A stretch of DNA of 64,000 nucleotides from a virus (Duplodnaviria; Caudoviricetes): IMG/VR virus record IMGVR_UViG_3300028888_000061, positions 64,001 through 128,000 of that record; one strand, given 5' to 3'. Numbering within the stretch: position 1 is the stretch's first letter; every line of letters starts with the position of its first letter. Below the pieces are notes generated by a model that worked only from the letters and a program-made list of their open reading frames with translations, was not told the DNA's origin and did no database searches. This document shows, one piece after another, positions 2,556-36,169 of the stretch. The translations under genes and the position numbers were made by a program.

Positions 2556-2638
2556 TGGTAACTGACCTTTGTTACTGACCGTTTTGAATGGTGGCAAATG
2601 ATCGGTCAAATCATCTTTCGGGGATCAGCCTAGCCACC
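2556..2638 (-). ncRNA. Three-way-junction leader RNA (c4-antisense-like architecture), copy 1
   Basis: GGTGGC-TAG-GCTGATCCCC-GAAA-GATGAT(TTGACCG)ATCATT-T-GCCACC, then CGGTCA-GTAAC-AAAGGTCA-GTTAC-CAATG. Confidence 0.65.
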
Positions 2639-2670
2639 AAACATATTGATAGCATAACCTAATGCTTGTT

Positions 2671-3465
2671 TCAATAAAGAGGACTCTCTTTCATACCACG
2701 GGATTTAGCACGTGGGTTTTCTCGCTCGTCGTATGATAGACGAAACAGAGTTTTATTCGGTTGCTTCGTAATACCTCTTGACAAATCAAAAATCTTTAAC
2801 GTCATGGCATGAGCCTCTTCTTTGTTACTGAACACATAATCCAAAACTTCTTCAGACACCCCATGCGTGTGTATTGACTTGTCGTTATAAGCATTAAGGT
2901 CAAGCACAGTGTCCTCAGTCGGAAGGTATTTGTTATCCTTGTACAGACTGTTCGACATCGTATTACGGATACGGGTGTACAGAATTGCACGAAGGTTCGA
3001 TATCTTACCTGTGAAAAATCGCACCTTGTTATTTAACCAAGAGGCACAGTCGGACACAGCGAGTGTGTTTAAGCTGTTCTGGTCTTCATTTCTGTAATAC
3101 TTGCCAGACACAGAATATGCGAGCATTTGAATGTAAAGCCATCCGAACTCAGTCAGACCTTTGTCGTCAAGAAACTTATCCAAAGTCATTGACTTTGGGT
3201 CGTATTTGAAGGCATCAGGATACTTCTTCAATAAAAGCTGTGTTGCTTTTCTTGCCGAGAAAACCGCTGCCAAATCAAGGGTCTCATCGTTTGAAACAGA
3301 CCCGTCTTGCGTATCATCAGAAGCGTCAGCACTTTCTGAAAAAAGCTCAAGCTCATCACCCGTATCATCACCAACGTACTCCGCAGTTTCCCACGACAAC
3401 TCACCATTTAACTCGTACATGGACACACCCCGTGAACCAGAAGTCCGACTTTTTATGTTTAACAC
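2671..3465 (-). CDS. Possible phage sigma-factor-like protein; C-terminus supplied by the IS left end
   Basis: AVSDCASWLNNKVRFF...LRAILYTRIRNTMSNSLYK resembles sigma region 2.2-2.4; acidic N-terminus. Weak call. Confidence 0.35.
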   Translation of the reverse strand: MLNIKSRTSGSRGVSMYELNGELSWETAEYVGDDTGDELELFSESADASDDTQDGSVSNDETLDLAAVFSARKATQLLLKKYPDAFKYDPKSMTLDKFLDDKGLTEFGWLYIQMLAYSVSGKYYRNEDQNSLNTLAVSDCASWLNNKVRFFTGKISNLRAILYTRIRNTMSNSLYKDNKYLPTEDTVLDLNAYNDKSIHTHGVSEEVLDYVFSNKEEAHAMTLKIFDLSRGITKQPNKTLFRLSYDERENPRAKSRGMKESPLY

Positions 3466-3516
3466 AACGCAAAATTTACGACAAGAAATTGACCGAAAAT
3501 TTGTGCCTGTTTTTAC

Positions 3517-4629
3517 TTATCCAATCTCGAACGAATCCGCCCCTGACAACAAAGACAAGAGCATCGTTTGAACACCAAGGTCATCTGTAAATCCTTCAAG
3601 CACCCAAGACTGCATACAGTAGCGAACAAGTCCGTTCCAGTTAATGTGCCGGTCGCTCAAAGGCTTATCACAAACAAATCGCCTCACTGCATCCGAAACA
3701 TCTGGACTGTCATGGAACAAGGATACACGAAGTATCTCGCTAAAGAAACGTTTGTATTCCTCAACGAACATCGCAATGGGTAACGATAAAAGGCTCTCAA
3801 AGACTTTCTCAATGTATTCCGTTTTTATCTGTACGGAACCTGAATTAAGATTCCGTTGAAGTAAAAGCCGAACAAAGGCAATAATGCCGCGATAAAACCG
3901 TTCGGTATCCTGCATGAAAACATCACGACCGGACAAAAGGTAACGGTCCATAAGCATGTACGCATTACGCATCGAACCACGACTACGCTGTGCGAGAATA
4001 CGACACACCTCGTCAGGGACGTTAATATTTCGCTTGTCAGCACATTTACGTAACGTCTTTTCGATAAGAACGACAGACTTTGTCGTGTAGTGAAGTTCCA
4101 CAGCACGAGAACGTATAGTAGGTAACAGATTATCTGGGTCTGTTGTGCATAACAAAAATTTATGGAAAGGATGCCCTTCTTCAAAGTCCTTCAGAAGCAA
4201 CGTCTGCACGTCACGAGTAAGCTGGTGACATTCATCCAGAACGACAACACTCCACCTGCCGCCTGTGCCATAAGAAAACGAATCAATGATTCCACGAATG
4301 GCATCCTTTCTGTTCACGGTACTCGAATCGTACTCATGGTAAAACTTCCACTCACCAATCGGTGCATTGTTACGCAGACACGCAGCACACAAACCACAGA
4401 TGTCCTTGGATTGCCCAGAACGAAGTCGGTCACAGCACAATGCCTTATAAAACAGACGTGCAGAACTCGTCTTGCCACCGCCATACGAACCGGACAGAAT
4501 TATGGTGTTTGGTGTATTTGAAGGGTCTTTAGCGATATTAAGAAGAATGCGACTATTTTCATCTTCGCCGACAACTTCAGAAAACTTTGATGGTCTCTCT
4601 TCCTGAGCTAACACGTGACTGTACTCCAA
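3517..4629 (-). CDS. dnaX: Clamp-loader ATPase, DNA polymerase III gamma/tau-like
   Basis: RPSKFSEVVG, Walker A GSYGGGKTS, zinc motif CGLCAAC, Walker B VVVLDECH, TIRSR arginine finger, GSMRNA sensor 2. Confidence 0.9.
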   Translation of the reverse strand: MEYSHVLAQEERPSKFSEVVGEDENSRILLNIAKDPSNTPNTIILSGSYGGGKTSSARLFYKALCCDRLRSGQSKDICGLCAACLRNNAPIGEWKFYHEYDSSTVNRKDAIRGIIDSFSYGTGGRWSVVVLDECHQLTRDVQTLLLKDFEEGHPFHKFLLCTTDPDNLLPTIRSRAVELHYTTKSVVLIEKTLRKCADKRNINVPDEVCRILAQRSRGSMRNAYMLMDRYLLSGRDVFMQDTERFYRGIIAFVRLLLQRNLNSGSVQIKTEYIEKVFESLLSLPIAMFVEEYKRFFSEILRVSLFHDSPDVSDAVRRFVCDKPLSDRHINWNGLVRYCMQSWVLEGFTDDLGVQTMLLSLLSGADSFEIG

Positions 4630-4660
4630 TGCGTAAAATAACAGCGGTCAACTTTATATC

Positions 4661-5461
4661 CTAAACCAAACCAGACACATGAAGCAAGTCCAGCACCACG
4701 TTCTTGTAAACATTATACATACTGTCATTATCCAGAGCGAGCTGTGCAATATCACCGAAGTCTTTCTTATACGGAGAGTAAACTCTCTCCACAGTCGGAG
4801 GCTTTCGGGAGAACTTCATTTTGGTATTCAATCTGGAATACCCCGTATCTCCGGCCTCATCATTATCGAATGCGACAACACACCGAGGCGCTGTCTGTGA
4901 AACAAGAGTGAGCATCTCTAAATTCATACCGGACACACCTCCCGATGCAATCGTATATGGATAAAAACACCGCAACCAGTCAGAGTCAAAAGCACTTTCA
5001 ACCAGTAACCAAGGCTTATGATACGGTTTGTCAGAAGTCAGAAATCCATAAGGTACGTATGGAAACGGCGTAAACGAGCGAAAACTTTTAGAAAACACTG
5101 AACGCACCGTCACACCATGAACTTTATCATCCATATCACGTGACGGCATAACAATCACAAGTTCCTCAGAGCAAACAAATTTGCGAAACCAGTCAGGTAA
5201 AAAATCACATGAATATGCTGTTTGTCCGTCAAGCAACCTATAACCCAGATGTGAAGCCCAATACAAATACTTGTCAGCACAGCCTGAATTAAGAATCCTT
5301 AAACGACCGTCAAGATTCCTGTAACGAATACACAAGTCATCCTTTGACGGAACTGTCGGTAATGATGCGAACAAATCCGTCATACGCTTCACAAGGTCAC
5401 ATGCGTCAGCTTTGGTGTAAGGAATGTATGAGTTTACGTCTGTGGATTCCATACAAAACAC
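4661..5461 (-). CDS. TOPRIM-domain DNA primase
   Basis: LLVESAFD and VVAFDNDEAG TOPRIM motifs, KDFGD C-terminal motif; no N-terminal zinc finger seen. Confidence 0.75.
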   Translation of the reverse strand: MFCMESTDVNSYIPYTKADACDLVKRMTDLFASLPTVPSKDDLCIRYRNLDGRLRILNSGCADKYLYWASHLGYRLLDGQTAYSCDFLPDWFRKFVCSEELVIVMPSRDMDDKVHGVTVRSVFSKSFRSFTPFPYVPYGFLTSDKPYHKPWLLVESAFDSDWLRCFYPYTIASGGVSGMNLEMLTLVSQTAPRCVVAFDNDEAGDTGYSRLNTKMKFSRKPPTVERVYSPYKKDFGDIAQLALDNDSMYNVYKNVVLDLLHVSGLV

Positions 5462-6031
5462 TTAAATATCAAGAGACCAGACAGGGTCATTTGGGTCGAG
5501 TTCGTCTGAATCCAGAAGCGTCTGATGTAATCCAAATTGCTCTGTCATCATACGGTCATAAGCAGCATTATTCTTTGAGACTTCGTGAGCATACGCATCG
5601 CACTGCACCTGGAAACTGTGTAAAAGTGCGGTAGCTTTTTTGTCACCGATTTCTGACTTCAACCACTGTAATGCATTATCCAACGCAACTTTACGGCCCT
5701 GGGATGAATTGAATTTCTCGCTATCGAACGTCGCATGGTACTCTTCATAACACTCACGCACCTTGCAAATGTAGCGTATAATTGTCGAACGTTTTTCATC
5801 CGATAACCGGTCAACAGCACGTGAAATGGTCACGGTTGGAGACGACAACTTATACGTGAACCCGTTCTTGATGGGACTCTCTGTTATTTCGTAAGGAATG
5901 CTGAAAAACTCACCTGTTGCGACAACACCATCTGTGATGTACCCGGAGCATTCTTGATAATTTGGTTTCACAACCTTCAATTTCTTACGTTTTTGCACTT
6001 CACGTTTCCCGTAAAATAATTTCTTAGCCAT
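5462..6031 (-). CDS. Hypothetical protein
   Basis: Long ORF abutting the primase gene; likely ATG start at 6031. Confidence 0.6.
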   Translation of the reverse strand: MAKKLFYGKREVQKRKKLKVVKPNYQECSGYITDGVVATGEFFSIPYEITESPIKNGFTYKLSSPTVTISRAVDRLSDEKRSTIIRYICKVRECYEEYHATFDSEKFNSSQGRKVALDNALQWLKSEIGDKKATALLHSFQVQCDAYAHEVSKNNAAYDRMMTEQFGLHQTLLDSDELDPNDPVWSLDI

Positions 6032-6087
6032 CGCTCTACCAAAAGCAAAACCCAACACAGTCTAACAAACTGTGTTGGGTGTCCACA

Positions 6088-10555: not shown

Positions 10556-10591
10556 ATACCACGCAAGGTGCGTAAAACTTAATACGGGTAC

Positions 10592-22830: not shown

Positions 22831-23075
22831 GTGTTGAAATTGTTGAAGTTCAGACAGTTTTCAGAAAATTTTGAAAGCTGAAAAAGCTGAAGAAAAAGTG
22901 CGAATTTTGGTTGAGGACAAATTTTATGGAAGTTAATACGGCTGGCATGATTTTTGCTAGAAGACTTGTACGTAAGTACTCATCCACCTGTGAACTATGA
23001 TTTTGGTTAAAGACCGATTCAGGCATATTCCTGTTTTGCTTTACTTTGAATGGAATTTGCTGTATCAGAAAATTT

Positions 23076-23171
23076 GTGTGGCTAGGGTAGCTACCGAAAA
23101 GACGTAAAGCCTAACGTCCGCCACACTCTCTTTTTAGAGATGACTCAGGCACGTATTTGAGGCTGAATACC
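23076..23171 (+). ncRNA. Three-way-junction leader RNA, orphan copy 3
   Basis: GTGTGGC-TAG-GGTAGCTACC-GAAAA-GACGT(AAAGCCTA)ACGTC-C-GCCACAC ... AGGCACGTATTTGAGGCTGAATACC. Confidence 0.65.
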
Positions 23172-23187: not shown

Positions 23188-24051
23188 TTGAACTTTAACA
23201 GATGCGATTGGGAAACCCACCGCTTTCGTATTTCCTGTATGGAGTGTTTTATGTTCGAGACTGCACGCACAGATACTTCCTGTGCATCAAAGACTTTGTT
23301 TTCGATGGCTGTAAAGATTTGTGGTATACAGACATTGATAACTGAGTTAGGTACTTTGGTATCATCCAAGGACGTTGGAGCTTCCTGTGACGATAATGCT
23401 GATGAACTGTTTACCTCGGATGTTCAGTTTGTTGGAATCAAGCAGAGGCCATTGAATGAGTCTGTCTGTTCTGCATTACGGAGAGAATCCTGGTGTCTGT
23501 TGAATCATGTTCCAATTCCTCTGTCGCTTGAATTTTACAGAGACCTTCAAAGTGCTACTTTTGAGTTTGGTTCTTTTCTGAACGATACCAGGACTTCATC
23601 TGTTTCTTCTTGTCCCATTGGAAAATTTCGTTCGTCGAAGTTGTTTTTCTCTCTTGACCTTTATCGTGATTTTGCCATTTCTCGTTCCGCTTCTGAGAAT
23701 GGCGACTGTCGCCTTTATCTGTCGATTTCCAACATCTTGTCCCAATGGGATACCTCAATTTTTGAAACGCTTCTTAATGAATCGGATGTCACCTCGATAT
23801 CTTACGCGCTCTCGCAGCTTGTCGGTAAAAAAGAATCTGCTTTAGAACTCAGTAATGGAACGCAGAAGGCTCTTTATCGTTACGTGCTCGCTTTCCGCTC
23901 GGCTTTACCTGATAGTTATCTCCGCCTGTTCTCTTACCGGTCAAAGTACGTTGCGTTCTATCCGTACAAAACTTTAAAGCTCCTTGGATTTCCTCCTGTT
24001 GTTGAATTTGAAGGGATGATTAAGAATAACTTACTTGGTATTGTGGAGTAA
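23188..24051 (+). CDS. Hypothetical protein, first gene right of the candidate origin
   Basis: Long ORF; start uncertain (ATG 23251 has an upstream GGAG). Confidence 0.6.
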   Translation: MNFNRCDWETHRFRISCMECFMFETARTDTSCASKTLFSMAVKICGIQTLITELGTLVSSKDVGASCDDNADELFTSDVQFVGIKQRPLNESVCSALRRESWCLLNHVPIPLSLEFYRDLQSATFEFGSFLNDTRTSSVSSCPIGKFRSSKLFFSLDLYRDFAISRSASENGDCRLYLSISNILSQWDTSIFETLLNESDVTSISYALSQLVGKKESALELSNGTQKALYRYVLAFRSALPDSYLRLFSYRSKYVAFYPYKTLKLLGFPPVVEFEGMIKNNLLGIVE

Positions 24052-24159
24052 GAAGGATTTTGTTTGGCTTGTGGCATTTGCTTTTATCAGACTGATGGTA
24101 TGGGTTTTTGCCCAATCAAAGTTGTGAGCAGGAAACCCCCACGTTTGGAGAATTTGAGT

Positions 24160-25689
24160 ATGGCAAAACGTAAAACGAAGAGTGATGAAATTGTGAGTAC
24201 GGTTGCATTGGAAACCCCTGTGGAGAACATGGAAACCTCTGTGGAAACCCCTGTAAGGAAATCGAAAAAGGTTAAGACCGAGAAAACGGAGAAGACCGAG
24301 AAGACCGAGAAGACAGAGAAGACAGAGAAGACGGCATGTCAGTCATCTGATGTGGAGTCTTTATCTCTTGTTGCTGATTCAGAAGTTCAGGCAACTGAAC
24401 CTCAGGAGTCATTGCATGACGCTACGGAAACCGCAACCGAGGAACCTGAACCTTTCCGTATTGCTGCTGTTCCCGGTAAACCGCAAGAGTCTAACGATGA
24501 TGATTCTGTGATACAGCTTGTACCAGATACGGATGCTCAAACACAAGCAGAGGCGGATGCTGAGCAGGAACCTTTCCGTGTGGTTGATGTTCCGCCAAAC
24601 AGCATATCGTCGGATGATTACGATGCACGTCAGAGCATTAGCGTACCTGTTACGGAGAAACGTAAGGATGAGGGTTATCTTCGGTTAAACAAACCGAAAC
24701 TCGGTATGCTTATGGTTAAACCAGAACTTGAGGATTCTGTCGAAAGCAATGATGTTTCCTTAGTCGGTGAGTCTGATGAGAATGATTCCGATGAAAATCA
24801 GCCTGATGCAGAGGATGCTGCACAGCAGGATATGGATGATTTCTTTGTCGTTCACAGGCATGTGTCTGCTGATGATGTTCCGCAGGATTGTGCTGATTCG
24901 GGTGAACCTGATGAAATGATTCCTGATGAACCTGATGAACCTGATGAACTGGATGATTTTACTGATGAGCCGAGTGATTATTTGGATGACGATGACGTGG
25001 AGGATGAACCTTGTGACCAGGATAATTCCTCTTATCCATCGTGTCTTGAACCACCTGCCTGTCCTGTGTTTGTTTGTAAGGGTGTTTTTGACTTACCGTT
25101 CGTCAAAAAATCTTCGTCAGACAAGTGTTATCTTGTACCTGATGGAAAGAATGAAAAGTTGCGTTTCGAGCGTTCTTACACGGTGAAGAAATCACGTCCT
25201 TACAGACGTGATTTGAACTATGAGCTTGAGGATACGTGTATCGCTGATATGCCTTATTACTGCTTCGACGGTCACGTTGTAGGCATGGCTCACGAGTTCG
25301 ACCCACTGTCCGGGATGTACATGAATGAGGTTTACACGACACGCGGTGTGTATTCTTTCAGAACGTGTTCAGAATTACCTGAGCGTTCAGGTTCGTATGA
25401 TGACTTTTTTCAGACGATTTTGAACACCCTCATTCTCTACGATGCAGAGTTTACTCCGTTATGTGATTTGTCTGGGTATGACTGTACTTCTGTGGACAGT
25501 GAATGCGATGACATTTCCGTTGTGTGTATGGGTGTGCTTGAGGTGTGTGGTGTTCGTTATGGTATGCGTTCCGACTGCACAGTTGATTTTGAAAGCGTGA
25601 TTAGAGCTTTGTGGGAAATCATAAATACAGATGACTCCGATGAAGACCTTGGATTTTATCGTGCGTATTTTAAACTTTTAGGAGACTGA
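24160..25689 (+). CDS. Highly acidic low-complexity protein
   Basis: GGAG RBS before ATG 24160; basic N-terminus, KTE repeats, long D/E-rich region. Confidence 0.7.
   Translation: MAKRKTKSDEIVSTVALETPVENMETSVETPVRKSKKVKTEKTEKTEKTEKTEKTEKTACQSSDVESLSLVADSEVQATEPQESLHDATETATEEPEPFRIAAVPGKPQESNDDDSVIQLVPDTDAQTQAEADAEQEPFRVVDVPPNSISSDDYDARQSISVPVTEKRKDEGYLRLNKPKLGMLMVKPELEDSVESNDVSLVGESDENDSDENQPDAEDAAQQDMDDFFVVHRHVSADDVPQDCADSGEPDEMIPDEPDEPDELDDFTDEPSDYLDDDDVEDEPCDQDNSSYPSCLEPPACPVFVCKGVFDLPFVKKSSSDKCYLVPDGKNEKLRFERSYTVKKSRPYRRDLNYELEDTCIADMPYYCFDGHVVGMAHEFDPLSGMYMNEVYTTRGVYSFRTCSELPERSGSYDDFFQTILNTLILYDAEFTPLCDLSGYDCTSVDSECDDISVVCMGVLEVCGVRYGMRSDCTVDFESVIRALWEIINTDDSDEDLGFYRAYFKLLGD
24274..24333 (+). 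repeat. 9-bp coding tandem repeat (KTE x6-7)
   Basis: AARACNGAG units with synonymous variation. Confidence 0.85.
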
Positions 25690-25690
25690 G

Positions 25691-25924
25691 ATGAAAAAAG
25701 ATAACGTGTTTTCCTATGTGTATGAGAATACCGACTTGTCTGTGTTCCATGAGTATCCGAATAATGTGTCCATCGTGTGTTCTGACGGTAGTGTTCAGAA
25801 CATTGTGAACATGCACTCAAAGTCTCTTGGCGAGGTGATTACTAATGTGAACGCTCAAGACATTACGTTTTTTGAGTTTGACCGAGAGGGTGTTCAGACG
25901 GTAGTTGTGCTTCCTGATAACTGA
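25691..25924 (+). CDS. Hypothetical protein
   Basis: AGGAG RBS; follows the acidic protein directly. Confidence 0.6.
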   Translation: MKKDNVFSYVYENTDLSVFHEYPNNVSIVCSDGSVQNIVNMHSKSLGEVITNVNAQDITFFEFDREGVQTVVVLPDN

Positions 25925-25929
25925 CTTTC

Positions 25930-25971
25930 GTGGTGCTGTGTGTTCTGGTTACTTTAGTTTTGTGTTAAAAG
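25930..25971 (+). promoter_or_regulatory. GGTGCTGT-box promoter (recA)
   Basis: GTGGTGCTGT-N26-TAAAAG, preceded by TGTGT. Confidence 0.6.
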
Positions 25972-26037
25972 GCATGATGCGGTAAAGGTGTCATGCCTTT
26001 GTTTTTACTGTCCCATTTACTTTTGTTCGGAGAAGTT

Positions 26038-27333
26038 ATGCCAAGAGTGTCTGCAAAAAGTACGGTAAAGAAGAGTTCATCACGTGGTGCGAAGAAGGAA
26101 ACGTCATCTGCTGCGGTTGAAAAGAGAACCCGTAAATCCAGTAAACCAAGCAAACAAGTCGCAAAGGAAGTTGTAAATGACACAGAAGAAATCATTGAGG
26201 AGACTCTTACAGAAATAACAGAAGACGGTGAGCAGGTTTCGGTTCGTGTAACGAATGATTCCAATGCCGGTAAGGATGTTCAGATTGAGGATTCTGAGTG
26301 GAATGAGGATAATCAGAGAGACTTGGAAGCCTTTAACGCTATGCCAGAGGCACGCAGGAAGTACTATGACAATTTGACGGCTGCGGTGCTTCGAGACCGT
26401 AAGTATATCAAGTCTGGCAGTTTCGTTCTCGACGCAATCCTGTCTGATGGTCAAGGAATTCCTACAGGAACGTTCATTGAGCTGACTGCACCGTATGCCG
26501 TCGGCAAATCAAGTCTTCTTTTGTTCATGTGTAAGAATCTTTGTGACCAAGGATATCGTTGTGCTTACATCGACACAGAGCGTGGACTGAACGACAAACA
26601 GATTGCGAGTTTTGGGCTTACGAATCATACCAAGTCTCGTATGTTCCTGCCGATGACTATCGACACGTTTGAAGAAATTGACGAGTTCTTATGCAATGCT
26701 TTGACTGATGATACGTTGAAATTTATCGTTGTCGATTCTTTAACGGCTGCTTCTGCGTCCGATATGATTGAGAAGGAAACTGGTCAGAATCAGACATTGG
26801 CTATCCATGCACGTACAATTTCTGCGTTCTTGCGACGGTTTAGGTCTAAGTTCGGCACATCCGACAAGACTATTTTCTTTGTGGCACAAAACCGAAAGCA
26901 GTTTACTCAGTACGGTGCACAGGACGGTGCAGCCGGTGGCGAGGCACAAAAGCATTACATGGACATCACTATCCGGATGAAATTAAAGGACAAGCTGACC
27001 AGAAAAATAAAAGGCTCTACCGAGAAGCAGCAGTATGGAACGATATGCACGATTATGTGTGACCCAAAGAACCGTTTCTGCAGTCCACGTATTCCGATGA
27101 GCATCGCTATCGTGTGGGGCAAGGGTGTTTCAAATGCAGCCGCTCTTTATGACGCTTTAGTGAGTCAGGGAAAAATCACGCAGAAAGGTTCTTTTTATGT
27201 GATTGAGGGCGTCGATGGACGTGAAGAGCAGTTTCGTGGTCAGGACGCCGTCACGTTCTATATCTCACAGCATTCGGATTATTATTTAAGGCTTGTTGAA
27301 CGTCTTGGTGGTATCCGGCTACCAAAGGTGTAA
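26038..27333 (+). CDS. recA: RecA/UvsX recombinase with long N-terminal extension
   Basis: SGSFVLDAIL.GIPTG, Walker A APYAVGKS, YIDTE, IVVDSL, AQNR, AGGEAQKHY, KNRF. Confidence 0.9.
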   Translation: MPRVSAKSTVKKSSSRGAKKETSSAAVEKRTRKSSKPSKQVAKEVVNDTEEIIEETLTEITEDGEQVSVRVTNDSNAGKDVQIEDSEWNEDNQRDLEAFNAMPEARRKYYDNLTAAVLRDRKYIKSGSFVLDAILSDGQGIPTGTFIELTAPYAVGKSSLLLFMCKNLCDQGYRCAYIDTERGLNDKQIASFGLTNHTKSRMFLPMTIDTFEEIDEFLCNALTDDTLKFIVVDSLTAASASDMIEKETGQNQTLAIHARTISAFLRRFRSKFGTSDKTIFFVAQNRKQFTQYGAQDGAAGGEAQKHYMDITIRMKLKDKLTRKIKGSTEKQQYGTICTIMCDPKNRFCSPRIPMSIAIVWGKGVSNAAALYDALVSQGKITQKGSFYVIEGVDGREEQFRGQDAVTFYISQHSDYYLRLVERLGGIRLPKV

Positions 27334-27349
27334 TTAACGTATCAGTCAG

Positions 27350-27380
27350 AATCCCATCGTTTCGTCACGGTGGGATTTTT
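27350..27380 (+). terminator. Intrinsic terminator after recA
   Basis: AATCCCATCGT-loop-ACGGTGGGATTTTT. Confidence 0.75.
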
Positions 27381-27440
27381 CGTTTATCAAAGGAGTGTAT
27401 TGTCGCTGTGCATGGTGCACTTCTTTTTTAACTTTGTTCA

Positions 27441-28103
27441 TTGAGTTGGACGATGGCTGAGAATTTGTCTGCTTCTGTTGTGTCTTCATCTGTTTCTTTA
27501 CCGCTTTCAAAAACATGCCTCTATATGGCTCATGCTTTTATGTCAGGAAGGCCACACCCTGTTTCTTACGTGAAATCTGCGATAGATACAGGTTCCGTGA
27601 GTATCGACACAGAGACCTCCGATGTGTGTATGGAGAAAGCCAGGTTATGCCTGAATGACCTTGATGCTTTAATTTCACGTCTGTCGAAAGATGGAAATGC
27701 GGAACGATTGCTGACACGCTTAGTTGAGATGGCTAAGTTTGTTGGAACAGAACACGCAGTACGAGAGTCTGATTTGGGTGTTCTTGCTTTTATGTTTCGT
27801 CAGCATTTTGGTTGTCGGAAAAAAGACAGGAGACCAAAAACCCAGTGTTATGAATTCGCCCCGTATGGTAAAGTTTCCGTTGTTCCGTCTCAGGTTTCAT
27901 TTATGGCTGATGGCGTAGATGTTTACGGTAAGTACTTCAGACTGTATTCTGTTACTGATGAAGACGCAAAGGTACTTTACGTGGTACGGTCGGATGAATG
28001 GATTGATGACTTTCTTGAAGCCGATGTGCTGACATTAAATGTCGAAAAGCGTGAGACCCGAAAGGGTGTCAATCAGTCTTTATGCAGTCTTGTGATAAAG
28101 TAA
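27441..28103 (+). CDS. Hypothetical protein
   Basis: 220-aa co-oriented ORF. Confidence 0.6.
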   Translation: MSWTMAENLSASVVSSSVSLPLSKTCLYMAHAFMSGRPHPVSYVKSAIDTGSVSIDTETSDVCMEKARLCLNDLDALISRLSKDGNAERLLTRLVEMAKFVGTEHAVRESDLGVLAFMFRQHFGCRKKDRRPKTQCYEFAPYGKVSVVPSQVSFMADGVDVYGKYFRLYSVTDEDAKVLYVVRSDEWIDDFLEADVLTLNVEKRETRKGVNQSLCSLVIK

Positions 28104-28118
28104 TTCAGGAGGTGTACT

Positions 28119-29219
28119 GTGCAGCAGTTTGAAAATGAGGAGTTTTACGTCGAGGTTTATGACAGATACAGCGAAAAGCCTTTGTTTGACGCAGCGTGCA
28201 TTGTGTTCAGTCTGGGGCGTAAGATGCTTGATTGGGCTTTAGCTCGTGTGCCCAATGAGGAGAAAGTCCTTTCAGAGCATCCATGTGGACGTAACTATTT
28301 GACGCTTGGTGGCGTTAGGACTTTGTGCAAGAAATCGAATTCGAAGAAAAGTCGCCGGTTTCGTGATTGGTTTGAGAATGTTGTCGTAAGCAGTGTGTTT
28401 CCGCAGGATGTTGTTGATGCAGCAGACTTGTTTGTCAGTGAAAATGATTTGTCCACTTCTGACGATTCGTCATGTAAGGCACAGAAAAAGTCTGTTGAAG
28501 TGTTTGATGAGCAAAACGACGTTGCGACGCAATTACAGTCTTCAAACACGTGTCAAGAAACAGAAGCCTCGAATAATCTCGTTAAGTGTTTCGACAATGG
28601 TGTTTTCAGTGTTCGTACTGTTATGCGTGACGGTGAAACGTGGTTTGTTGCAAGTGATGTGTGTAAGTGTCTTGGACTGGCACAGGTAAGTCGTGCATGT
28701 GACAGGCTGGATGAGGACGAGAGAGTCTTACTAAAAGTAACCCACCCCCAGAACCCTGAAAAAGAGTTGGATGTGTGTGGTGTTTCTGAATCTGGTCTCT
28801 ATGCTCTGATTTTGCGCTCAAATAAACCAGAGGCAAAGCCATTTCGTAAGTGGGTGACTTCGGAAGTTCTGCCTACCATACGAAAAACCGGCATGTACGT
28901 TCCGCAGCATGTTATGGACAGGATAGCGGTGCTTGAACAGATGGTTCTTGAAATTCGTGATGTATTACCGGTTCAGAATCAGCAGTCATCGTTTAGAACT
29001 GCACGTGATGTTTGTGAAGAACTTGGTCTTGATGTTGTTGACACGACGTTCAAGTTTATTGTGTCGTCTTACATGAAGAATCTTTGTGATCAGCATCCAG
29101 AGCGTGAGACATACAGTCGTGGGTTTAACGGGATACGGGTTTTTCCTTCCTGGGTAACTGACGAGTTTATATCTATGTATCGAACCAATCCAAAGATACT
29201 TGACCCTTATCTTCCGTGA
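28119..29219 (+). CDS. Bro-N domain antirepressor-like protein
   Basis: VRTVMRDGETWFVASDVCKCL...VSESGLYALILRSNKPEAKPFRKWVTSEVLPTIRKTG; degenerate second Bro-N copy at the N-terminus. Confidence 0.9.
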   Translation: MQQFENEEFYVEVYDRYSEKPLFDAACIVFSLGRKMLDWALARVPNEEKVLSEHPCGRNYLTLGGVRTLCKKSNSKKSRRFRDWFENVVVSSVFPQDVVDAADLFVSENDLSTSDDSSCKAQKKSVEVFDEQNDVATQLQSSNTCQETEASNNLVKCFDNGVFSVRTVMRDGETWFVASDVCKCLGLAQVSRACDRLDEDERVLLKVTHPQNPEKELDVCGVSESGLYALILRSNKPEAKPFRKWVTSEVLPTIRKTGMYVPQHVMDRIAVLEQMVLEIRDVLPVQNQQSSFRTARDVCEELGLDVVDTTFKFIVSSYMKNLCDQHPERETYSRGFNGIRVFPSWVTDEFISMYRTNPKILDPYLP

Positions 29220-29276
29220 CATGATGCGTGCAATCTAAACTTATTAGTTTGCGTTTCGTAGCATTGGAGGTTTTTC

Positions 29277-30899
29277 ATGGCAGGACGCACGGTTCCAAAG
29301 ACAACAAGGGTTAGTTCGGACAACGAGAATCCGCAGGGCGTCCATCCGTCTGTGTCATCGGATGGCGTCATAGAGAAAAAGAGTGGTGGTCTTTTTCAGT
29401 GGGTCAAGAGTCTGTTTGGTGGGCGTGTTCGTGTTGTCGATGACCCGCAAGATTCTCGTGACGATTTTCTGAAAGACCTTATTTCAAGAACAGATTGTTC
29501 CATTCTCGGCGACCTTCACAATTATGCAACTGACCGAGAGGGCATGATTGCTGATTATAAGGAAATGCTTACAGATGCAACAGTTATTGCAGCTGTTGAG
29601 TTAATCGCAGAGGATTCAAGTATCATCGATAACGATACGAATCTTGCGGCATGGGTTACATGTCAGGATGACCCTGACTTCGGCGACATGATGACCCAAT
29701 GGCTCGCAGATACGGTGAACATCAATGACCTTATTTATCCGATAGCTTTCAATATCGTTGCTTTCGGAGAGTGTTTTCTAAATACGAATTTTACGAATGA
29801 AGTGTACCGTGAGAATTTTACTCTCGGTGATTTCTTTTCCATTGCTGACCCGCTTGAGTGTATTCACCTGTTTCGTTTTGGTGCTCCTCTTGGGTATGCC
29901 ATACGAGAAGGTGATGGTGTTTACACGTATGGCGAGAATGACGCGATTCTTCCGGAGAAGTCTTACATACATTTCATTTCTGACCGTGGGCAAGACCAGG
30001 CAGTAGGCGACCCTGATGACGGTGTTGTTATCCGTTACGGTACAAGTTTTCTGGATGCCGCAAAGTACCTTTTCAGACAGAAGAAATTATTGGATGACTT
30101 ATTGATTCTCGCCCGTCTTACTAGAAGTGCTTTTTATCGCATTTTCAGTGTTGAGGTAGGGAACGCAACAAGTCAGGATACCGCCAGGATGATGCGTGAG
30201 GTACGCACAGCCATCAACTCAAAACAGTCTCTTAATGTCGCACAGGGTGTTTTCAGTTCTGTGAACGCTCCAATGATAACCGGCGGTAATGTTTACATTC
30301 CGGTTAGAAACGGTGTTGGTAATGTGAGTGTCAATGAGGTTTCTGCTCCGACAGAGATTGGACAGCTTACGGATGTGAATAATATCTTAAAGAGCTTTAT
30401 GGGTGCTTTAGGTGTTCCGCCTCAATTTCTTGGTTTCGCAGATGAAACAGGAGGCGGTCTGAATGATTCAACGCTTACGCAGCTTGATATCCGTTATGCA
30501 AGAAAAGTCAAACGTGTGCAGCGTATTTTGCGTGAAGGTATCAAGAAGCTCGTTATCTGGAAATGTCTTATTGACGATATCATGCCGCCTGAGTTTACAA
30601 TTCAGATGCCGACCATTCTCACAGGTGAAGACGAAAAGCGTGCTACTGCGATTACTGCAGAAGTTGACCGTATGAATACAGCACTTGACATCGTTGCAAA
30701 GATTGACCCTGAATACATGAACGGCGTGAATAAACGTGAACTGATTTACTTCATTCTGCACAAGGTGTTCAAGAATGATGACCTGCTTGACGCTCTGGGT
30801 TACAACAATCCGCAACCGGAAACACAGGGAAACGGAGAAGAGGGCGGTGAAGATGAAGAGGGTGGATTCGACAGAGGTGGCGGATTCGGCGCTGTGTAG
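29277..30899 (+). CDS. Portal protein (T4 gp20-like)
   Basis: DYKEM, YGTSFLDAAK...QKKLLDDLLILARLTRS..RIFSVEVG, YIPVR, ALGVPPQFL, RYARKVKRVQ. Confidence 0.9.
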   Translation: MAGRTVPKTTRVSSDNENPQGVHPSVSSDGVIEKKSGGLFQWVKSLFGGRVRVVDDPQDSRDDFLKDLISRTDCSILGDLHNYATDREGMIADYKEMLTDATVIAAVELIAEDSSIIDNDTNLAAWVTCQDDPDFGDMMTQWLADTVNINDLIYPIAFNIVAFGECFLNTNFTNEVYRENFTLGDFFSIADPLECIHLFRFGAPLGYAIREGDGVYTYGENDAILPEKSYIHFISDRGQDQAVGDPDDGVVIRYGTSFLDAAKYLFRQKKLLDDLLILARLTRSAFYRIFSVEVGNATSQDTARMMREVRTAINSKQSLNVAQGVFSSVNAPMITGGNVYIPVRNGVGNVSVNEVSAPTEIGQLTDVNNILKSFMGALGVPPQFLGFADETGGGLNDSTLTQLDIRYARKVKRVQRILREGIKKLVIWKCLIDDIMPPEFTIQMPTILTGEDEKRATAITAEVDRMNTALDIVAKIDPEYMNGVNKRELIYFILHKVFKNDDLLDALGYNNPQPETQGNGEEGGEDEEGGFDRGGGFGAV

Positions 30900-30956: not shown

Positions 30957-31682
30957 ATGTTGGACGCAACGCATACGCTTTTTTTCATCATCGGCTTCCT
31001 TGTGCTTTTCAGTGTGGTGATGCCGTTGGTGGCACGTGTTACGAAAATTTCTTTTACATGGACTTTGGTAATCGTTTATCTCGGAATCCTGTTTGGTGTT
31101 ATACTTGATTTCTCGCATCTTACGAACGAAGTCCGTATGATTCTTGCAGTAGGCTCAATACTTGTGTCGGTGGCTTACATTCTTTCACATGTGTCTGAGA
31201 AAGCTCGGGCACGTGGTGAACAGTTACGTCTGCCAGAGATGAATTTGAAGAAAGGAAATACTCGTGTTAATGTAAAGTTCTCTGATGCTAAGAAGATTGT
31301 ATCTGAGGATGATGACAATCTTGATTTGAATGAACTTTCAACACTTCCGTATAACAACAACGATGCATTCGACACGGAGTTTCCTGTGCAGCAGGATAAC
31401 ACTTCGGTTGTTCAGAGTCAGATGAGAAGTACACAGGAGCGTATTACTGCACAGGAAAATCCGTATGCCATACGGACTCCTGTTCCTCAGACTTGCGCTC
31501 AGTCGAATCGTTCATTACGGCCTGTGTCCTCTGTGAACGACACGGTTGACCAGGACGAACTTGCACAGTTTATGAGGACTGACAGACGTGTTCGCCGGGA
31601 TGGAAACACAGGTGTCCATAGAATGTCCTCAAGTCAGGGATTTTCTTCTACACGTTCTGGAAACTGGAATCAGCCTCAGTGA
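30957..31682 (+). CDS. Membrane protein (about three N-terminal TM helices, polar tail)
   Basis: Three hydrophobic stretches in the first 80 aa; holin-like role unproven. Confidence 0.6.
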   Translation: MLDATHTLFFIIGFLVLFSVVMPLVARVTKISFTWTLVIVYLGILFGVILDFSHLTNEVRMILAVGSILVSVAYILSHVSEKARARGEQLRLPEMNLKKGNTRVNVKFSDAKKIVSEDDDNLDLNELSTLPYNNNDAFDTEFPVQQDNTSVVQSQMRSTQERITAQENPYAIRTPVPQTCAQSNRSLRPVSSVNDTVDQDELAQFMRTDRRVRRDGNTGVHRMSSSQGFSSTRSGNWNQPQ

Positions 31683-31715
31683 ATTACCCACCCGCTAAAA
31701 CGGTGGGTAATTCAC
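31679..31715. repeat. Perfect 14-bp-stem palindrome between convergent genes, IS605 right-end-like
   Basis: GTGAATTACCCACC-CGCTAAAAC-GGTGGGTAATTCAC. Confidence 0.75.
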
Positions 31716-31720
31716 GAACA

Positions 31721-34700
31721 TCACACGATTTGGTTGTTGTATGGTATGTCTAACACATAAAGATGTTCCGTTGAGTTTCCGATAGCCATCAGTAATACCA
31801 GGTCGCCGACTTTCAGCAGCACATCATCATCGATGTCGTGGCAGTAGGGCTTCAGGCTCTTTGGTTTTTCAGTCAGCGACATGTCGTACTCTCCAATGCT
31901 GTTGGATAATGACATAGACGGTCCGACCATTGCTCCAAGTTCACTTACGAGTGATGAGTCTAAGGTACCACTTGCAGCTTCAAATGTGTCATTGACTTTA
32001 GTTGCTACATCGCCGAGTTTGTTTAGTGTCGATATTACTTCATTCACACCTTTCGTAGCACCGAGCATCGTCATTATTTTTTCTGTTAGTGCTTTCAGGT
32101 CTATTGTTTTACCTACGAGTTCTCCTATACCGCCCATTATGTTTTTTACGATGTCGTTGAACTCTGATGCGAACTCTGAGATATCTGCTTTGGCATCTTC
32201 CATAAACGCTGTCAGCTTGTCCATTACTTTTTGTTCTGCATCAGACAGTAGTGGCTCTATATGCTTGAGGGCGTCAAAGTCAACCACATCAAAAGCCTTG
32301 TCAATGGCATTTGGAATCGTCTCCGTCACTGCCTGTTTTGCTTTTTTCATATTTTCCAGGATTTGTTCAAAGTTGTCTGCCGAGCTTGACTCCGTTTCTG
32401 TATTTGCGTCATGCTCTTTTTTGACAATCGTTGAAATGTTGTCACGGTAGACATGCATAGGAAGTAGGCTATTTGGTACTGCGTTTTTCTTTAGCCGTGC
32501 TCTGTCTTGTATTTTATCATTTTTAGGGTCTATGCTGATGAACATCAATTCCTTGCAGGCATTGGTCTGTACTTCTATGCTGAAGTCTTTAGTATAGGAC
32601 ATCACATCGCCGTCTTTCTTTTTGTTGTACCTTATTGCTACCTGGCTTTCGTCTTCACCTGTTCGTGTGAATACTCCTATGCCTGTATCTGTGCCTTCTG
32701 TTTTTATCGGTTGCGTGAGGAAGAAGAATGTGGAGACATCAACCGGTGAAGCTCCCTCGTCTTCGTACCAGAGTATTTGGTCGCATGTGACCGTTACGTC
32801 TTTGCTTGCCACGGTATTTAGCTGCTCTCTTTCACGGAAGACTTTATTTCCAGAGTCGTCAACTACAGGGTTGTTGTCTTCGTCAAGTTCTGGCTCGTAT
32901 ACGGTATTCCAGAATGTAAACTCTTCAACATTTCCGTTCTTATCGGTTCCGACACCTCTGTTCACTTCATACAGCAAAATAGGTAATTCCATGTTGCTCG
33001 TTGTCATAGGGTATATGTAGTGCAATCCATTTACTGTGAAGAAGCTGTTTTTCTGCATGATTAGCGGGTTTTCCATTTCAACGTACTTCCGCATGTTTAT
33101 AGTGAACTCTGTGTCACTGTAAGAAAACTTTAGTCCGTTTGGGTCTTTATCCACATCGCCGATGCTTACCTTTACCTGTGAACGTCCTGATGGAATACCC
33201 GCCGGTTTTTTGTATGGGTACTTTGACGTGTCAAATACGAACACAAGCCAATTTGTAAGAAGTGCTGCCTGTTCTGCATTTAGTGTTATGACCTTTCCTT
33301 TCATCTCTGGATGTTTTTCAAGGTATTCTTCACTCACCAGATTTTGTGCCTTGAATACAGACACTTCTTTAAGTTTTGTTTCTTGCGTAGTCTTTACGGA
33401 TTTCTTTTTCTTTTCGGCCTGTATCTCACGTATGTCAATAACGAATGCGGGGCACACTTGGAATATTATACCTGTCTGGCTGTCAACTCGGATATATCCA
33501 GAGTTCGAGTGTTTGTAGCAATAGAACTCATTTCCAGACATGTCTGTGAGTGCTTTCGGTGTGTATGACCCGTTTGTTTGTTGTTCGTATAACACGCCAC
33601 CTTTAATGAGGACATGCAGAGATGCAAGCATTTCATTTACGTATGCGCAGAAGTACCACCTTGCGTAGTTAATCAGAGAACCCATCTTTGAGGTTTCCTG
33701 TTCGCTATAAGTTCCTATTTCACTTATGTAGGTAAGATAACTGCCGTATGAGGTTTTACCTGAGTAGGTACGTGATTCTGTCTTCCATTTCGGAAAGAAA
33801 TCATTGTTGATGTCTATTTCCGGAAGGGTCATGTTGTATTTGTCTATGTACGTATATTTTATGCTGTCTGGCTGTATTCCGATAATGGAACAGATGTAGT
33901 TTAGGATTCCGTCATCTACGGTACGTGCATACTTCGTGGAATCTTCGATACCTTGTATGGTTGCCTCTAAGATTTGTCCGACAATTTCATCTCTGTCAGA
34001 ACTTTGTACGATTAGTGTTTGAGGTAGCTTTTCAAGTGTTTTGGAAACGAGTTCAGAAGGCTTGGCTGTCGGATTGTTCAGTGCATCAGCATAAGACACT
34101 ATCGGAATCATCTTTTTCTGAAGCCATGCCGCAAAGTCGTTAGAGATTCGACTGTAAACTTTCTGCGTTGCTTGGGTCACAGGGGATGACTTTTTCAGAT
34201 ATGGTGAATCTTTTATGTCGTATAAGCTGACACGTCTCCCACGTATTCCATCCCATAGTTCTGTACCTTCGTCCGGTTTACTTGTTACTGTACATCCTTC
34301 GTACACCGAGTTTAGAAATTCGTTCAGGATTGAATTTACGCTTGTCATTTCTGATGTAGATGGCGTCATACGTTCCTCAATCGTTTCGTACACGTCATCC
34401 ATCGGTTTAAATTGTTCTACGAGCATTCCGGGAAGTGCTTTTACGACATCACCGGCATCAGTATTCAGCAACCACTGTGTCTTGCTTACCAGCTGTTTTG
34501 CTGTTCGCCCTACAAAGCTCTGCATTATTTTTTCTTTTAGCGGTTCAAATGCTTTTATTAGTAATTCGATGATTTTGTCTTTTCCATAATCGAATGCTTT
34601 TTTTAGCGCCTCTTTCACGGCCTTGACTACGAAACCGACAATTTTATCACATATCTTTTCCAGAACTTTTTTCACGACTATTGACGCCATGAAGCGTGCT

Positions 34701-35776
34701 GGCATTGGAAGTTTTGCGATGATTGGCGAAATTGCCTGTGACACTATCTTTGCCAGTTTTTTCTTTACCTTTCTTAGTGGTGGCTTTAGCTTTTTGTTTA
34801 CTACGTTGAGTATTTTGTCACGTATTTTCCCTACGGCTTCGTTATAGAGCGCTGTTACCTTGTTTACGAGAGGTGACACAACGCTCATAATGATTTCTTT
34901 TAGTTGACTCTGCACCACACCTACTGCGGAAGCAGCCAGGTTTTTTAATTGCTCTTCGGCTGTCTTTTGAAGAGCATTTATTTTCTGAACGATTTGTTTT
35001 TCTGCATCAGTCAACGCTTCATGTAGTACATCTCGTTTGTTTATCAGTTCATCGAACCCATAGGCTTCTTTTAGTCTTGGAAGAAGTCCAGATACGAGGT
35101 TTACACCATCAGAGAGCAGTGTTTGCACACTGTTTCCTGGTATCGCAAGGGAGCTAAGGATTGAACTCTTTATTTTATCGATTATGTCTGATGCGTCCAG
35201 TGATGGGATTAAAGAGTCATTGCTTCCAGGTTCAAGCGGTTTCGTCATGCTCGACAGTGCATTCGAGAATGATTCTTCGACGATTTGTCCAACATCTACT
35301 GATGTTGCCGGTGCGGGTATTCCAGTTTCAGACAAAGACACGAAAATTGGCGGAATATTGACAATACCGATTGCATTCAAGGCTGTGGACACGGTTGTAA
35401 TCCACGTCATTGTCAGAGGGTCGAACATGTAGTTCGAGATGCTTATGCTTCCGTTTCCTGCGAATGACCCTTTGTAGTAAATCGTCTGTGGATTTTCCCA
35501 GAGGTTGGCTGCCATGACGAGTCCACGTGGAAGCATGGCTCGTCTGTAGCCATAGCTTTCCAGTTCGTGTTCCATGTCTTTGCCTTTATCCTCGCTTGAC
35601 TTTGGTTGTTTTATGTCGCCATCAAGTGCATTGAGGTCTACGTACACGAGTCCGTTTTCTTTCCAGGACGAAGGCATGTAAACGATGCGGCCTATGTAAA
35701 CGGATAATGGACTGGATGAAATGGCATCCTCGAACGATAATGGTTTTTTTGCTTTTGATTTAGGCATGGTTCTCAC
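31721..35776 (-). CDS. Large probable virion/baseplate protein with long helical regions
   Basis: 1351 aa; termini resemble gp5/gpV OB-fold strands; amphipathic helical tracts inside. Confidence 0.5.
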   Translation of the reverse strand: MRTMPKSKAKKPLSFEDAISSSPLSVYIGRIVYMPSSWKENGLVYVDLNALDGDIKQPKSSEDKGKDMEHELESYGYRRAMLPRGLVMAANLWENPQTIYYKGSFAGNGSISISNYMFDPLTMTWITTVSTALNAIGIVNIPPIFVSLSETGIPAPATSVDVGQIVEESFSNALSSMTKPLEPGSNDSLIPSLDASDIIDKIKSSILSSLAIPGNSVQTLLSDGVNLVSGLLPRLKEAYGFDELINKRDVLHEALTDAEKQIVQKINALQKTAEEQLKNLAASAVGVVQSQLKEIIMSVVSPLVNKVTALYNEAVGKIRDKILNVVNKKLKPPLRKVKKKLAKIVSQAISPIIAKLPMPARFMASIVVKKVLEKICDKIVGFVVKAVKEALKKAFDYGKDKIIELLIKAFEPLKEKIMQSFVGRTAKQLVSKTQWLLNTDAGDVVKALPGMLVEQFKPMDDVYETIEERMTPSTSEMTSVNSILNEFLNSVYEGCTVTSKPDEGTELWDGIRGRRVSLYDIKDSPYLKKSSPVTQATQKVYSRISNDFAAWLQKKMIPIVSYADALNNPTAKPSELVSKTLEKLPQTLIVQSSDRDEIVGQILEATIQGIEDSTKYARTVDDGILNYICSIIGIQPDSIKYTYIDKYNMTLPEIDINNDFFPKWKTESRTYSGKTSYGSYLTYISEIGTYSEQETSKMGSLINYARWYFCAYVNEMLASLHVLIKGGVLYEQQTNGSYTPKALTDMSGNEFYCYKHSNSGYIRVDSQTGIIFQVCPAFVIDIREIQAEKKKKSVKTTQETKLKEVSVFKAQNLVSEEYLEKHPEMKGKVITLNAEQAALLTNWLVFVFDTSKYPYKKPAGIPSGRSQVKVSIGDVDKDPNGLKFSYSDTEFTINMRKYVEMENPLIMQKNSFFTVNGLHYIYPMTTSNMELPILLYEVNRGVGTDKNGNVEEFTFWNTVYEPELDEDNNPVVDDSGNKVFREREQLNTVASKDVTVTCDQILWYEDEGASPVDVSTFFFLTQPIKTEGTDTGIGVFTRTGEDESQVAIRYNKKKDGDVMSYTKDFSIEVQTNACKELMFISIDPKNDKIQDRARLKKNAVPNSLLPMHVYRDNISTIVKKEHDANTETESSSADNFEQILENMKKAKQAVTETIPNAIDKAFDVVDFDALKHIEPLLSDAEQKVMDKLTAFMEDAKADISEFASEFNDIVKNIMGGIGELVGKTIDLKALTEKIMTMLGATKGVNEVISTLNKLGDVATKVNDTFEAASGTLDSSLVSELGAMVGPSMSLSNSIGEYDMSLTEKPKSLKPYCHDIDDDVLLKVGDLVLLMAIGNSTEHLYVLDIPYNNQIV

Positions 35777-35824
35777 TCTCGTTTTCAGTGACAGATAAAC
35801 ACCTTTTCGTTTCGATACCTAAAG

Positions 35825-35978
35825 AAAAAGCGGCAAGACTTTCGTCATGCCGCTTTAATGGGTTGGCTGCTTAGGTGTCGGGGCAACCAAGCAGCCGATT
35901 CATTAACCTTTTTGCTCTCATTAGGTCGCCTGAGCGGCCAATCTCGCAAAGCCATAGTGCTAGTAAGGCTAAGGTGAT
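35825..35978 (-). ncRNA. Candidate ~155-nt structured small RNA or leader ending in an intrinsic terminator
   Basis: Multi-stem 5' part, long hairpin TTAATG..GGCTGCTT..AAGCAGCC..CATTAA, terminator AAAGCGGCA-TGACGAAAGTCT-TGCCGCTTTTT. Confidence 0.5.
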
Positions 35979-36081
35979 GTTTTTGATAAGTATGCGAGTC
36001 GCAAACCCATTCGGCTTTAGCCCGTGTGTAAGCGAGCAATATATCTTGAAACAAGATTAAAATAATGCTATTTTTATGTTT

Positions 36082-36169
36082 GGGTGGTTAGTCCGACGGG
36101 ATGAAAAGTGAGTAAGCCTCTCACCTACCACCCTCTAAAGCAAAAGGCACGTATTCAAGGCTAAATACC
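36082..36169 (+). ncRNA. Three-way-junction leader RNA, copy 2
   Basis: GGGTGGT-TAG-TCCGACGGGA-TGAAAA-GTGAG(TAAGCCT)CTCAC-CT-ACCACCC ... AGGCACGTATTCAAGGCTAAATACC-ATG; promoter TTGAAA-N17-TATTTT upstream. Confidence 0.65.

Follow-up and report, generated by a model that had tools for sequence, protein, structure and literature searches.

The c4 RNA of phages P1 and P7 and the CI RNA of phage P4 are three-stem RNAs that lie upstream of their targets, on the same strand, and use short loop sequences to pair just downstream. In P1, target a2 is found 3 nucleotides (nt) after the RNA and is followed by b2 on the Shine-Dalgarno sequence (SD) of icd. Antisense RNA also acts within insertion sequences, as in the multicopy inhibition of IS10, where control depends on copy number. 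For insertion sequences with orfB/tnpB, the Rfam families IS605-orfB-I/II describe conserved structures 5' of the gene. Another motif, int-alpA (RF02996), takes its name from an integrase-alpA context and is entered in Rfam as a small RNA (sRNA). It was catalogued in 2017 among 224 candidate RNAs (PMC5737381), and our search, which left out the supplement of that paper, where loop-SD pairing might be remarked on, found no paper giving int-alpA a function. We analyzed a stretch of 64,000 nt (the window), bases 64001-128000 of the 138,361-bp IMG/VR virus record IMGVR_UViG_3300028888_000061 (43% G+C; CheckV completeness of 72%), in which two divergent TnpB genes, tnpB1 and tnpB2, are each preceded by a sigma-70-like promoter sequence, a three-way-junction RNA, and two short sites that match the loop of the RNA. 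This leader is probably a c4-like anti-SD riboregulator that limits TnpB translation.

TnpB1 and TnpB2 share 35% identity in a protein alignment that keeps the RuvC acidic positions. The D/E/D positions of the tnpB1 product are retained when it is aligned to TnpB2, and D178, E262, and the HDRD motif of TnpB2 are unchanged across six relatives. The Pfam domain start and the relatives place the true start of tnpB1 at ATG 2555. The longest open reading frame (ORF) call for this gene is 1236..2609, encoding 457 amino acids (aa), with a TTG start inside the P3 loop of the leader RNA; automatic annotation would absorb the copy 1 leader into tnpB1.

The original prediction had described, for both genes, a layout of promoter, P1 stem, UAG, short P2, GAAA(A), P3 hairpin, P1 closure, two targets, and ATG, and every one of these elements was found in copies 1 and 2 (Table 1). 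In copy 1, the -35 hexamer TTGAAA (2674-2669) is followed by a 17-nt spacer and TATCAA (2651-2646); the consensus promoter scan did not return this promoter because its -10 ends in A. P1 pairs UGGUGGC (2639-2633) with GCCACCA (2595-2589), UAG comes next, and P3 has an AUGAU/AUCAU stem and the loop UUGACCG (2609-2603, minus strand). P2 of copy 1 is weak (2 bp), GAAAG stands at the junction in place of GAAAAG, and the minimum-free-energy fold is an alternative structure rather than the three-way junction. P1 of copy 2 is formed by 36082-36088 with 36127-36133. Site 2 lies in a hairpin loop on an SD-like AAGG in both leaders, as GGTCA at 2563-2567 (minus) in copy 1 and AGGCT at 36158-36162 (plus) in copy 2. 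The window also holds a solo RNA with both sites and no tnpB, here called copy 3.

Table 1. Coordinates of the tnpB genes, leader cassettes, and mobile elements in the window
Feature	Position	Strand	Remarks
tnpB1	1236..2555	-	439 aa; Pfam HTH_OrfB_IS605, OrfB_IS605, Cas12f1-like TNB
Promoter-like TTGAAA-N17-TATCAA (copy 1)	2646..2674	-	sequence reading; aligned with copy 2 promoter
Three-way-junction RNA, copy 1	2589..2639	-	P1, UAG, weak P2 GGCUGAUCCCC, GAAAG, P3
P3 loop key UUGACCG (copy 1)	2603..2609	-	complementary to both copy 1 sites
Target site 1 CGGTCA (copy 1)	2576..2581	-	+9 after P1, offset as across family
Target hairpin GTAAC-aaaGGTCA-GTTAC (copy 1)	2558..2575	-	hairpin predicted by folding; ATG at 2555
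TnpA-less IS200/IS605-type element 1	1220..2716	-	left-end hairpin CCACG/CGTGG 2716-2696; right end ...GGTAGTTCAC finishing at 1220
Three-way-junction RNA, copy 3, without tnpB	23076..23126	+	junction is the minimum-free-energy fold; whole cassette 23076-23170
Copy 3 target sites	23147..23170	+	AGGC 23147-23150; hairpin GTATT-tgAGGCTg-AATAC with AGGCT 23160-23164
Promoter-like TTGAAA-17-TATTTT with TG extension (copy 2)	36046..36074	+	consensus promoter scan
Three-way-junction RNA, copy 2	36082..36133	+	junction is the minimum-free-energy fold
P3 loop key AGCCU (copy 2)	36115..36119	+
Target site 1 AGGC (copy 2)	36145..36148	+
Target hairpin GTATT-caAGGCTa-AATAC (copy 2)	36151..36168	+	ATG at 36170
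tnpB2	36170..37282	+	370 aa; Pfam HTH_OrfB_IS605, OrfB_IS605, Cas12f1-like TNB
TnpA-less IS200/IS605-type element 2	35993..37377	+	homology extents in other contexts; both end hairpins seen

An Rfam covariance-model scan assigned copies 2 and 3 to int-alpA. Copy 3 scored 37.5 bits (23075-23140) and copy 2 scored 36.4 bits (36081-36147), with a gathering score of 35.8 bits for RF02996. The folds of both copies show the int-alpA junction, that is, P1, UAG, a short P2, GAAAAG, P3, and the closure of P1 by CCUGCCAC. L249, a lineage mate of copy 1 found in the phage genome G004, has a regular P2 and scored 29.9 bits (E value of 3.3e-5). In the RF02996 consensus, the P3 loop contains CCU, and AgGG follows P1 after about 12 nt; these correspond to the loop and site 1, although the pair is not annotated. 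What the leaders lack is the context that gave the motif its name: no integrase or alpA adjoins, and the neighbors are tnpB or, for copy 3, unknown genes and genes for an Ant homologue and a portal-like protein. That context names the family but does not define its model.

The original prediction had likened the leader to c4 RNA and had pointed to the C4 families of Rfam. The parallel in layout was confirmed from the annotation and sequence of P1, with an upstream RNA on the same strand, targets downstream, and the last target on the SD. Membership in the C4 family was not. Neither tnpB leader matches C4, c4-2, or c4-a1b1 at E values up to 10 in the Rfam scan, in which the positive controls for C4 (RF01695), P1 c4 and P4 CI, were detected with 68.8 and 74.9 bits, respectively. 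Nor does either leader match any IS605-orfB family of Rfam in scans at E values up to 10; the likeness to IS605-orfB-I/II is a structure upstream of tnpB, and the difference is this absence of a match.

Loop and sites covary. In an alignment of 12 phage-group cassettes, two rows of which are out of register in the loop-site 2 helix, 90.3% of the cells in P1, the loop-site 2 helix, and the target hairpin are paired, compared with 33 to 45% when the 3' partner is slid by 1 to 3 columns. The covariation score is 0.464, compared with 0.04 to 0.13 in the slid controls, and none of 500 shuffles attained the observed pairing/covariation score. Changes on both sides are seen in 4 of the 6 pairs of the loop-site 2 helix. 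As had been predicted, the stems covary as well: in P1, pairing reaches 95% and 4 of the 7 pairs have double changes, and the stem of the target hairpin also covaries.

We then looked at the wider family. In a MAFFT alignment of 32 family members, P3 was out of register, and therefore RF02996 and a scripted parser were used in place of a covariance model of our own. A target-blind pattern, GTGGCTAG-N8-14-CGAAAAG, found at least 118 IMG/VR loci, about half of which are real junctions. The parsed junctions among the matches listed were reduced to 14 distinct loop classes. In 13 of these 14, the 70 nt downstream of the same RNA contain a perfect Watson-Crick match of at least 5 nt to the loop, and in 11 of the 14 there is more than one such match. 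When the loops were compared with the downstream regions of other members, 20% had at least one such match and 2.2% had two or more; by our own arithmetic, the chance of reaching at least 11 of 14 at the 2.2% rate is on the order of 1e-16. The offsets of the sites from the end of P1 are stereotyped (about +9 for the first and +22 to +26 for the second), and the second site overlaps the SD. One cassette without tnpB has the GUAUU...AAUACC hairpin of copy 2, and the content of its loop fits its own key, AAUCGUCAG, with the sites CUGACG and UGACGG. Because of this family-wide test and the unannotated pair in the RF02996 consensus, loop-site matching in these sequences is a property of the int-alpA class and not of tnpB.

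Within the TnpB lineages, loop and targets change together, as had been claimed for the two copies of the window. The leader is present in all IMG/VR relatives of TnpB2 at 64 to 87% identity (L001-L006) and in both relatives of TnpB1 (L038 and L249). The key of the TnpB1 lineage is always UUGACCG, with CGGUCA and GGUCA as sites. The key of the TnpB2 lineage is AGCCU with AGGCU, and the sole exception is L006, the most divergent member. The loop of L006 has switched to CAUAGACCA (UAGACCA), and both of its sites have changed with it, to UGGUCUA and GGUCUA. Keys differ between genes of one phage genome, and copies of one TnpB lineage have the same key. The original prediction had called the keys element specific; they are lineage specific, since the key of copy 2 is also that of solo copy 3 and of relatives in four other phage genomes. 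In predicted duplexes, the key of copy 1 pairs with its own target at -10.1 kcal/mol and with the targets of copies 2 and 3 at -2.7 and -2.9 kcal/mol, respectively; between copies 2 and 3, cross-reaction is predicted (-7.5 to -9.8 kcal/mol). The copy 1 key is thus predicted to be orthogonal to those of copies 2 and 3.

How might such a cassette work? The left end of each transposon carries a self-contained unit of promoter, junction RNA, and two direct-repeat sites. Transcription would start at or near the first base of an int-alpA-class three-way-junction RNA of about 52 nt. Site 1 follows the junction after about 9 nt, and site 2 is situated in a small hairpin loop, over the SD, with its end 1 to 3 nt before the ATG. 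The P3 loop would combine an anti-SD core (CC) with 2 to 4 specificity bases, and its pairing with the sites would lower TnpB translation in the way that P1 c4 RNA blocks icd/ant, with site 1 acting as a second, usually stronger, docking site. We infer from sequence both that the loop and the sites pair in vivo and that the outcome is repression rather than activation. If the RNA also acted in trans, its amount would rise with the number of element copies, and the result would be a copy-number-dependent self-limitation with a lineage-private key, resembling the multicopy inhibition of IS10. Solo copy 3 could then damp tnpB2. A whole-genome search for further hairpin-presented AGGCT or GGTCA by start codons, as a trans regulon would have, returned chance level besides the known sites.

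An alternative is a leader that folds only on itself, in which the P3 loop forms a pseudoknot with site 1 or site 2 and tunes mRNA stability or enhances or times translation, perhaps by keeping the SD hairpin open, with no trans RNA and no copy sensing. Transcription apparently starts at P1, so that the junction can form in an unprocessed transcript; of the two sites, site 1 usually gives the longer match and is the nearest one, which favors intramolecular pairing; and no obvious terminator follows P1 in copies 1 and 2. We nevertheless consider a purely cis-acting fold rather unlikely. Different keys within one phage genome and the same key within a TnpB lineage fit specificity between molecules, copy 3 consists of the RNA and its sites with no gene start behind them, and in many family members P1 is directly followed by a U-rich tract, which could release a free RNA.

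Pairing could also control transcription elongation, either by premature Rho-dependent termination, as P4 CI RNA does with seqA/seqC, or by polarity after translation is lost. P4 CI RNA and P1 c4 RNA are one Rfam family, and the layout of one key and two sites resembles the P4/P1 pattern, in which two copies of a target are served by one key sequence and the outcome is termination or polarity. Such control is quite improbable for these cassettes. In about a dozen independent cassettes, site 2 lies over the SD, with its end immediately ahead of the ATG, a position that translational control requires, and there is no terminator-like site after the targets.

Several observations weigh against translational repression by a c4-like leader. 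The loop-site pairing is short (at sites 1 and 2, 6 and 5 bp in copy 1 and 4 and 5 bp in copy 2), and one loop cannot hold both sites simultaneously. An SD in a hairpin loop could equally be offered to ribosomes. Copy 1, with its degenerate P2, has no RF02996 match at E values up to 10 and hence no Rfam score. L038 has lost site 1 and the hairpin and has an intact tnpB, and copy 3 has kept both sites, yet no start codon follows its hairpin. The statement that both tnpB genes carry the leader stands for the two of the window, but the record holds a third tnpB, outside the window, and no three-way-junction leader was found in its 5' region. The available sequences indicate that the cassette is not needed for TnpB elements in general, because the third tnpB of the record and relatives with up to 53% identity are without it.

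The promoter and leader RNA are part of the mobile unit, because homology between copies in different contexts spans both and ends at the right end. For element 1, homology to L038, the copy in phage genome G001, extends from 2674 (the -35 hexamer) to 1218. For element 2, it extends from 36016 to exactly 37377 (L001) and over 35983-37353 (L002), and the homologues of the copy 2 flanks in G001 are far apart from each other and far from the TnpB2-like element of that genome. The right end ...GGTAGTTCAC is common to all copies, and homology stops there. A left-end hairpin of the IS200/IS605 type is found upstream of the promoter and a right-end hairpin at the right end, and the two are alike (e.g., in L004). 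The elements have no tnpA: they are about 1.4 to 1.5 kb long with only tnpB, and the flanking ORFs are without a transposase domain. The separation of the leader from the presumed 3' omega-RNA end, which had been part of the original prediction, is also seen, with the leader in the left part of the element and the conserved sequence at its right end. A 264-aa ORF upstream of element 1 (2671-3465, minus strand) reads through the left-end hairpin and has its stop inside the -35 TTGAAA; either the element was inserted in the 3' end of a gene, or the ORF was extended by chance.

This position inside the element raises the question of whether the junction is a DNA-level feature of the left end, a single-strand fold recognized in transposition, rather than a regulatory RNA. 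The ends of IS200/IS605 elements function as folded single strands, and the motif does lie in the left part of the element. However, the element has separate end hairpins, one ahead of the promoter and one at the right end; the motif is also found ahead of many non-transposon genes, always co-oriented and just upstream; and it has covarying partner sites on the SD. A DNA-level role is, on these grounds, highly improbable.

Copy 3 has the key and sites of copy 2, and its junction sequence is identical to that of the leader of the TnpB2-like element in G004. Local alignment of the 80 nt 3' of copy 3 to the 5' ends of tnpB found no significant tnpB remnant. A decayed tnpB element as the origin of copy 3 is not supported, since the alignment was no better than shuffles (P values of 0.17 to 0.99) and there is no left-end hairpin. 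Copy 3 lies in a divergent intergenic region and heads a row of plus-strand genes (23251-30899), which encode two unknown proteins (266 and 541 aa), a UvsX/DnaB-like ATPase (25993-27333), a homologue of the anti-repressor Ant (28119-29219), and a portal-like protein (29277-30899). With its key RNA ahead of an ant gene, this arrangement is reminiscent of P1 immI. A search for relatives of the genes that follow copy 3 found none.

We investigated the distribution of the cassette beyond the window. It occurs in six uncultivated phage genomes, ahead of three divergent TnpB lineages and of unrelated genes. The five phage records with tnpB relatives have one to four RF02996 matches each at E values up to 0.01, some ahead of tnpB and others ahead of unrelated genes. 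The third lineage is represented by L247 (G003:C1, about 3460-5030, minus strand), a protein of at least 488 aa with a Cas12f1-like TNB domain (E value of 6e-15) and a weak OrfB_IS605 match. It follows an int-alpA-type RNA with the key AAGUUAUUCAC and the repeated sites GAAUAAGU and AUAAUAAGU, and judging from these features it is a very divergent TnpB-like lineage that has the cassette. The leader was also sought ahead of TnpB relatives with up to 53% identity (80 bacterial and archaeal loci and 30 viral ones), and only chance matches away from tnpB were found. Megablast of both elements against GenBank phages gave no match.

The idea of a leader specific to TnpB did not survive, as this RNA, again with sites that match its loop, also stands before genes for HNH endonucleases, a methylase, a DUF551 protein, and many unknowns. 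Among the matches listed from the IMG/VR sample, the downstream genes encode HNH_3 (3), AP2 (2), NUMOD4, T5orf172, C5 methylase, DUF927, DUF551, and glycosyltransferase proteins and many unknowns. Homing endonuclease types (HNH_3, AP2, NUMOD4, and T5orf172) make up about 7 of these 37 genes, and the rest are mixed or unknown, which rules out a cassette specific to nucleases. Several client proteins open with a common ...FG(R/K)LTV motif and belong to no Pfam family. Identical pairings of cassette and gene are found in different phage genomes (L241, L246, L248, and L257, in G002, G003, and G005), and the key AUUUACCUG stands in both G002 and G005 ahead of a 492-aa protein with a faint REase_MTES_1575 match.

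The motif is not confined to uncultivated phages. It was found in isolated phages of Enterobacter, Salmonella, Klebsiella, Edwardsiella, Pantoea, Vibrio, and Pseudomonas; in none of the 11 matching records is an RNA annotated at the motif, and in 2 a hypothetical protein is annotated under the match. Enterobacterial int-alpA-type RNAs occupy moron-like slots. At L253 (NZ_CP031134.1, 3282515-3282611), in an Escherichia coli prophage, such an RNA and its two sites lie between the rha and terminase genes, directly ahead of a DUF551 gene, and the RefSeq annotation shows no RNA there.

Two further loci touch on the TnpB elements themselves. Compared with copy 1, L249 (G004:C1, about 239966-241534) is missing about 470 bp of tnpB and has a first ORF of only 129 aa; its leader is intact with both sites, and it is possibly an orphan key RNA like copy 3. 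The third tnpB-only element of the record (G000:C1:52843-54291, minus strand) lies about 9.7 kb ahead of the window start and encodes a protein about 26% identical to TnpB1 and TnpB2. Its left-end hairpin is present, its right end is GGTAGTTGAC, and its 5' region contains a terminator-like hairpin, GAAAGTCA...TGACTTTC, followed by TTTTT, just ahead of the SD.

The cassette is thus present in lineages only 35% identical and absent in closer relatives, and was therefore exchanged or captured rather than inherited with TnpB. A wider picture can be drawn, though we regard it as possible and on balance doubtful. The RNAs of the int-alpA class may amount to a natural collection of orthogonal lock-and-key cassettes, each with a promoter, a key RNA, and two locks, one of them on the SD, which phages and the selfish elements they carry swap before mobile or moron genes. 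Three TnpB lineages may have captured a brake from it that senses copy number in trans, and orphan keys such as copy 3 may allow a live tnpB with the same lock to be silenced by the phage or by a dead element.

Compared with C4 RNAs, the leader shares the 3' arm CCUGCCAC(C) and a specificity that comes from covarying key and target. The differences are substantial. In addition to the missing covariance-model match, the leader has a short P1 and different conserved junctions (UAG and GAAAAG). C4 uses two different keys, a' in the junction strand and b' in the loop, whereas the leader has a single P3 key and two direct-repeat sites. No upstream a1/b1 copy is present, and the client genes are different. 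The leader RNA begins at the transcription start, so 5' processing by RNase P seems unnecessary, unlike in C4. Relative to int-alpA, the leader is here a tnpB leader inside an insertion sequence, with no int or alpA, and copy 1 is too divergent to score. With RNA-OUT/RNA-IN of IS10 and the 5' untranslated region of IS200 tnpA with its art200 RNA (PMC5435999), the leader would share the principle that an RNA encoded by the element blocks the ribosome-binding site of a protein gene of the same element and thereby limits activity. Those antisense RNAs, however, are on the opposite strand, are fully complementary, and control a transposase; the leader is on the same strand, lies upstream, has a loop key of 5 to 7 nt, and would control tnpB, which encodes a guide-RNA nuclease.

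The structure (int-alpA) and the logic (c4) are therefore already known. The claim of novelty is accordingly narrowed: the RNA of copies 2 and 3 had been catalogued, and int-alpA had not been described as a TnpB leader. In keeping with the original prediction, our search turned up no paper in which such a 5' regulator is described for TnpB. Our results suggest that what is new is the function proposed for int-alpA, the layout of one key and two locks, and the capture by TnpB elements; no paper on these was found in our search, with the supplement of PMC5737381 outside its reach.

The results provide a candidate function for an orphan Rfam motif that is found in isolated phages. TnpB, from which Cas12 descends, is a tool for genome editing, and its expression level matters for transposon fitness and for damage to the host. 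As far as we found, no post-transcriptional control at the 5' end has been described for TnpB before, and the leader would be the first. The family, with at least 14 natural key/lock pairs built on a single compact scaffold, offers candidate orthogonal translational regulators. The occurrence of the cassette in TnpB lineages with 35% identity, and not in closer ones, points to a modular exchange of regulatory RNAs between phages and insertion sequences.

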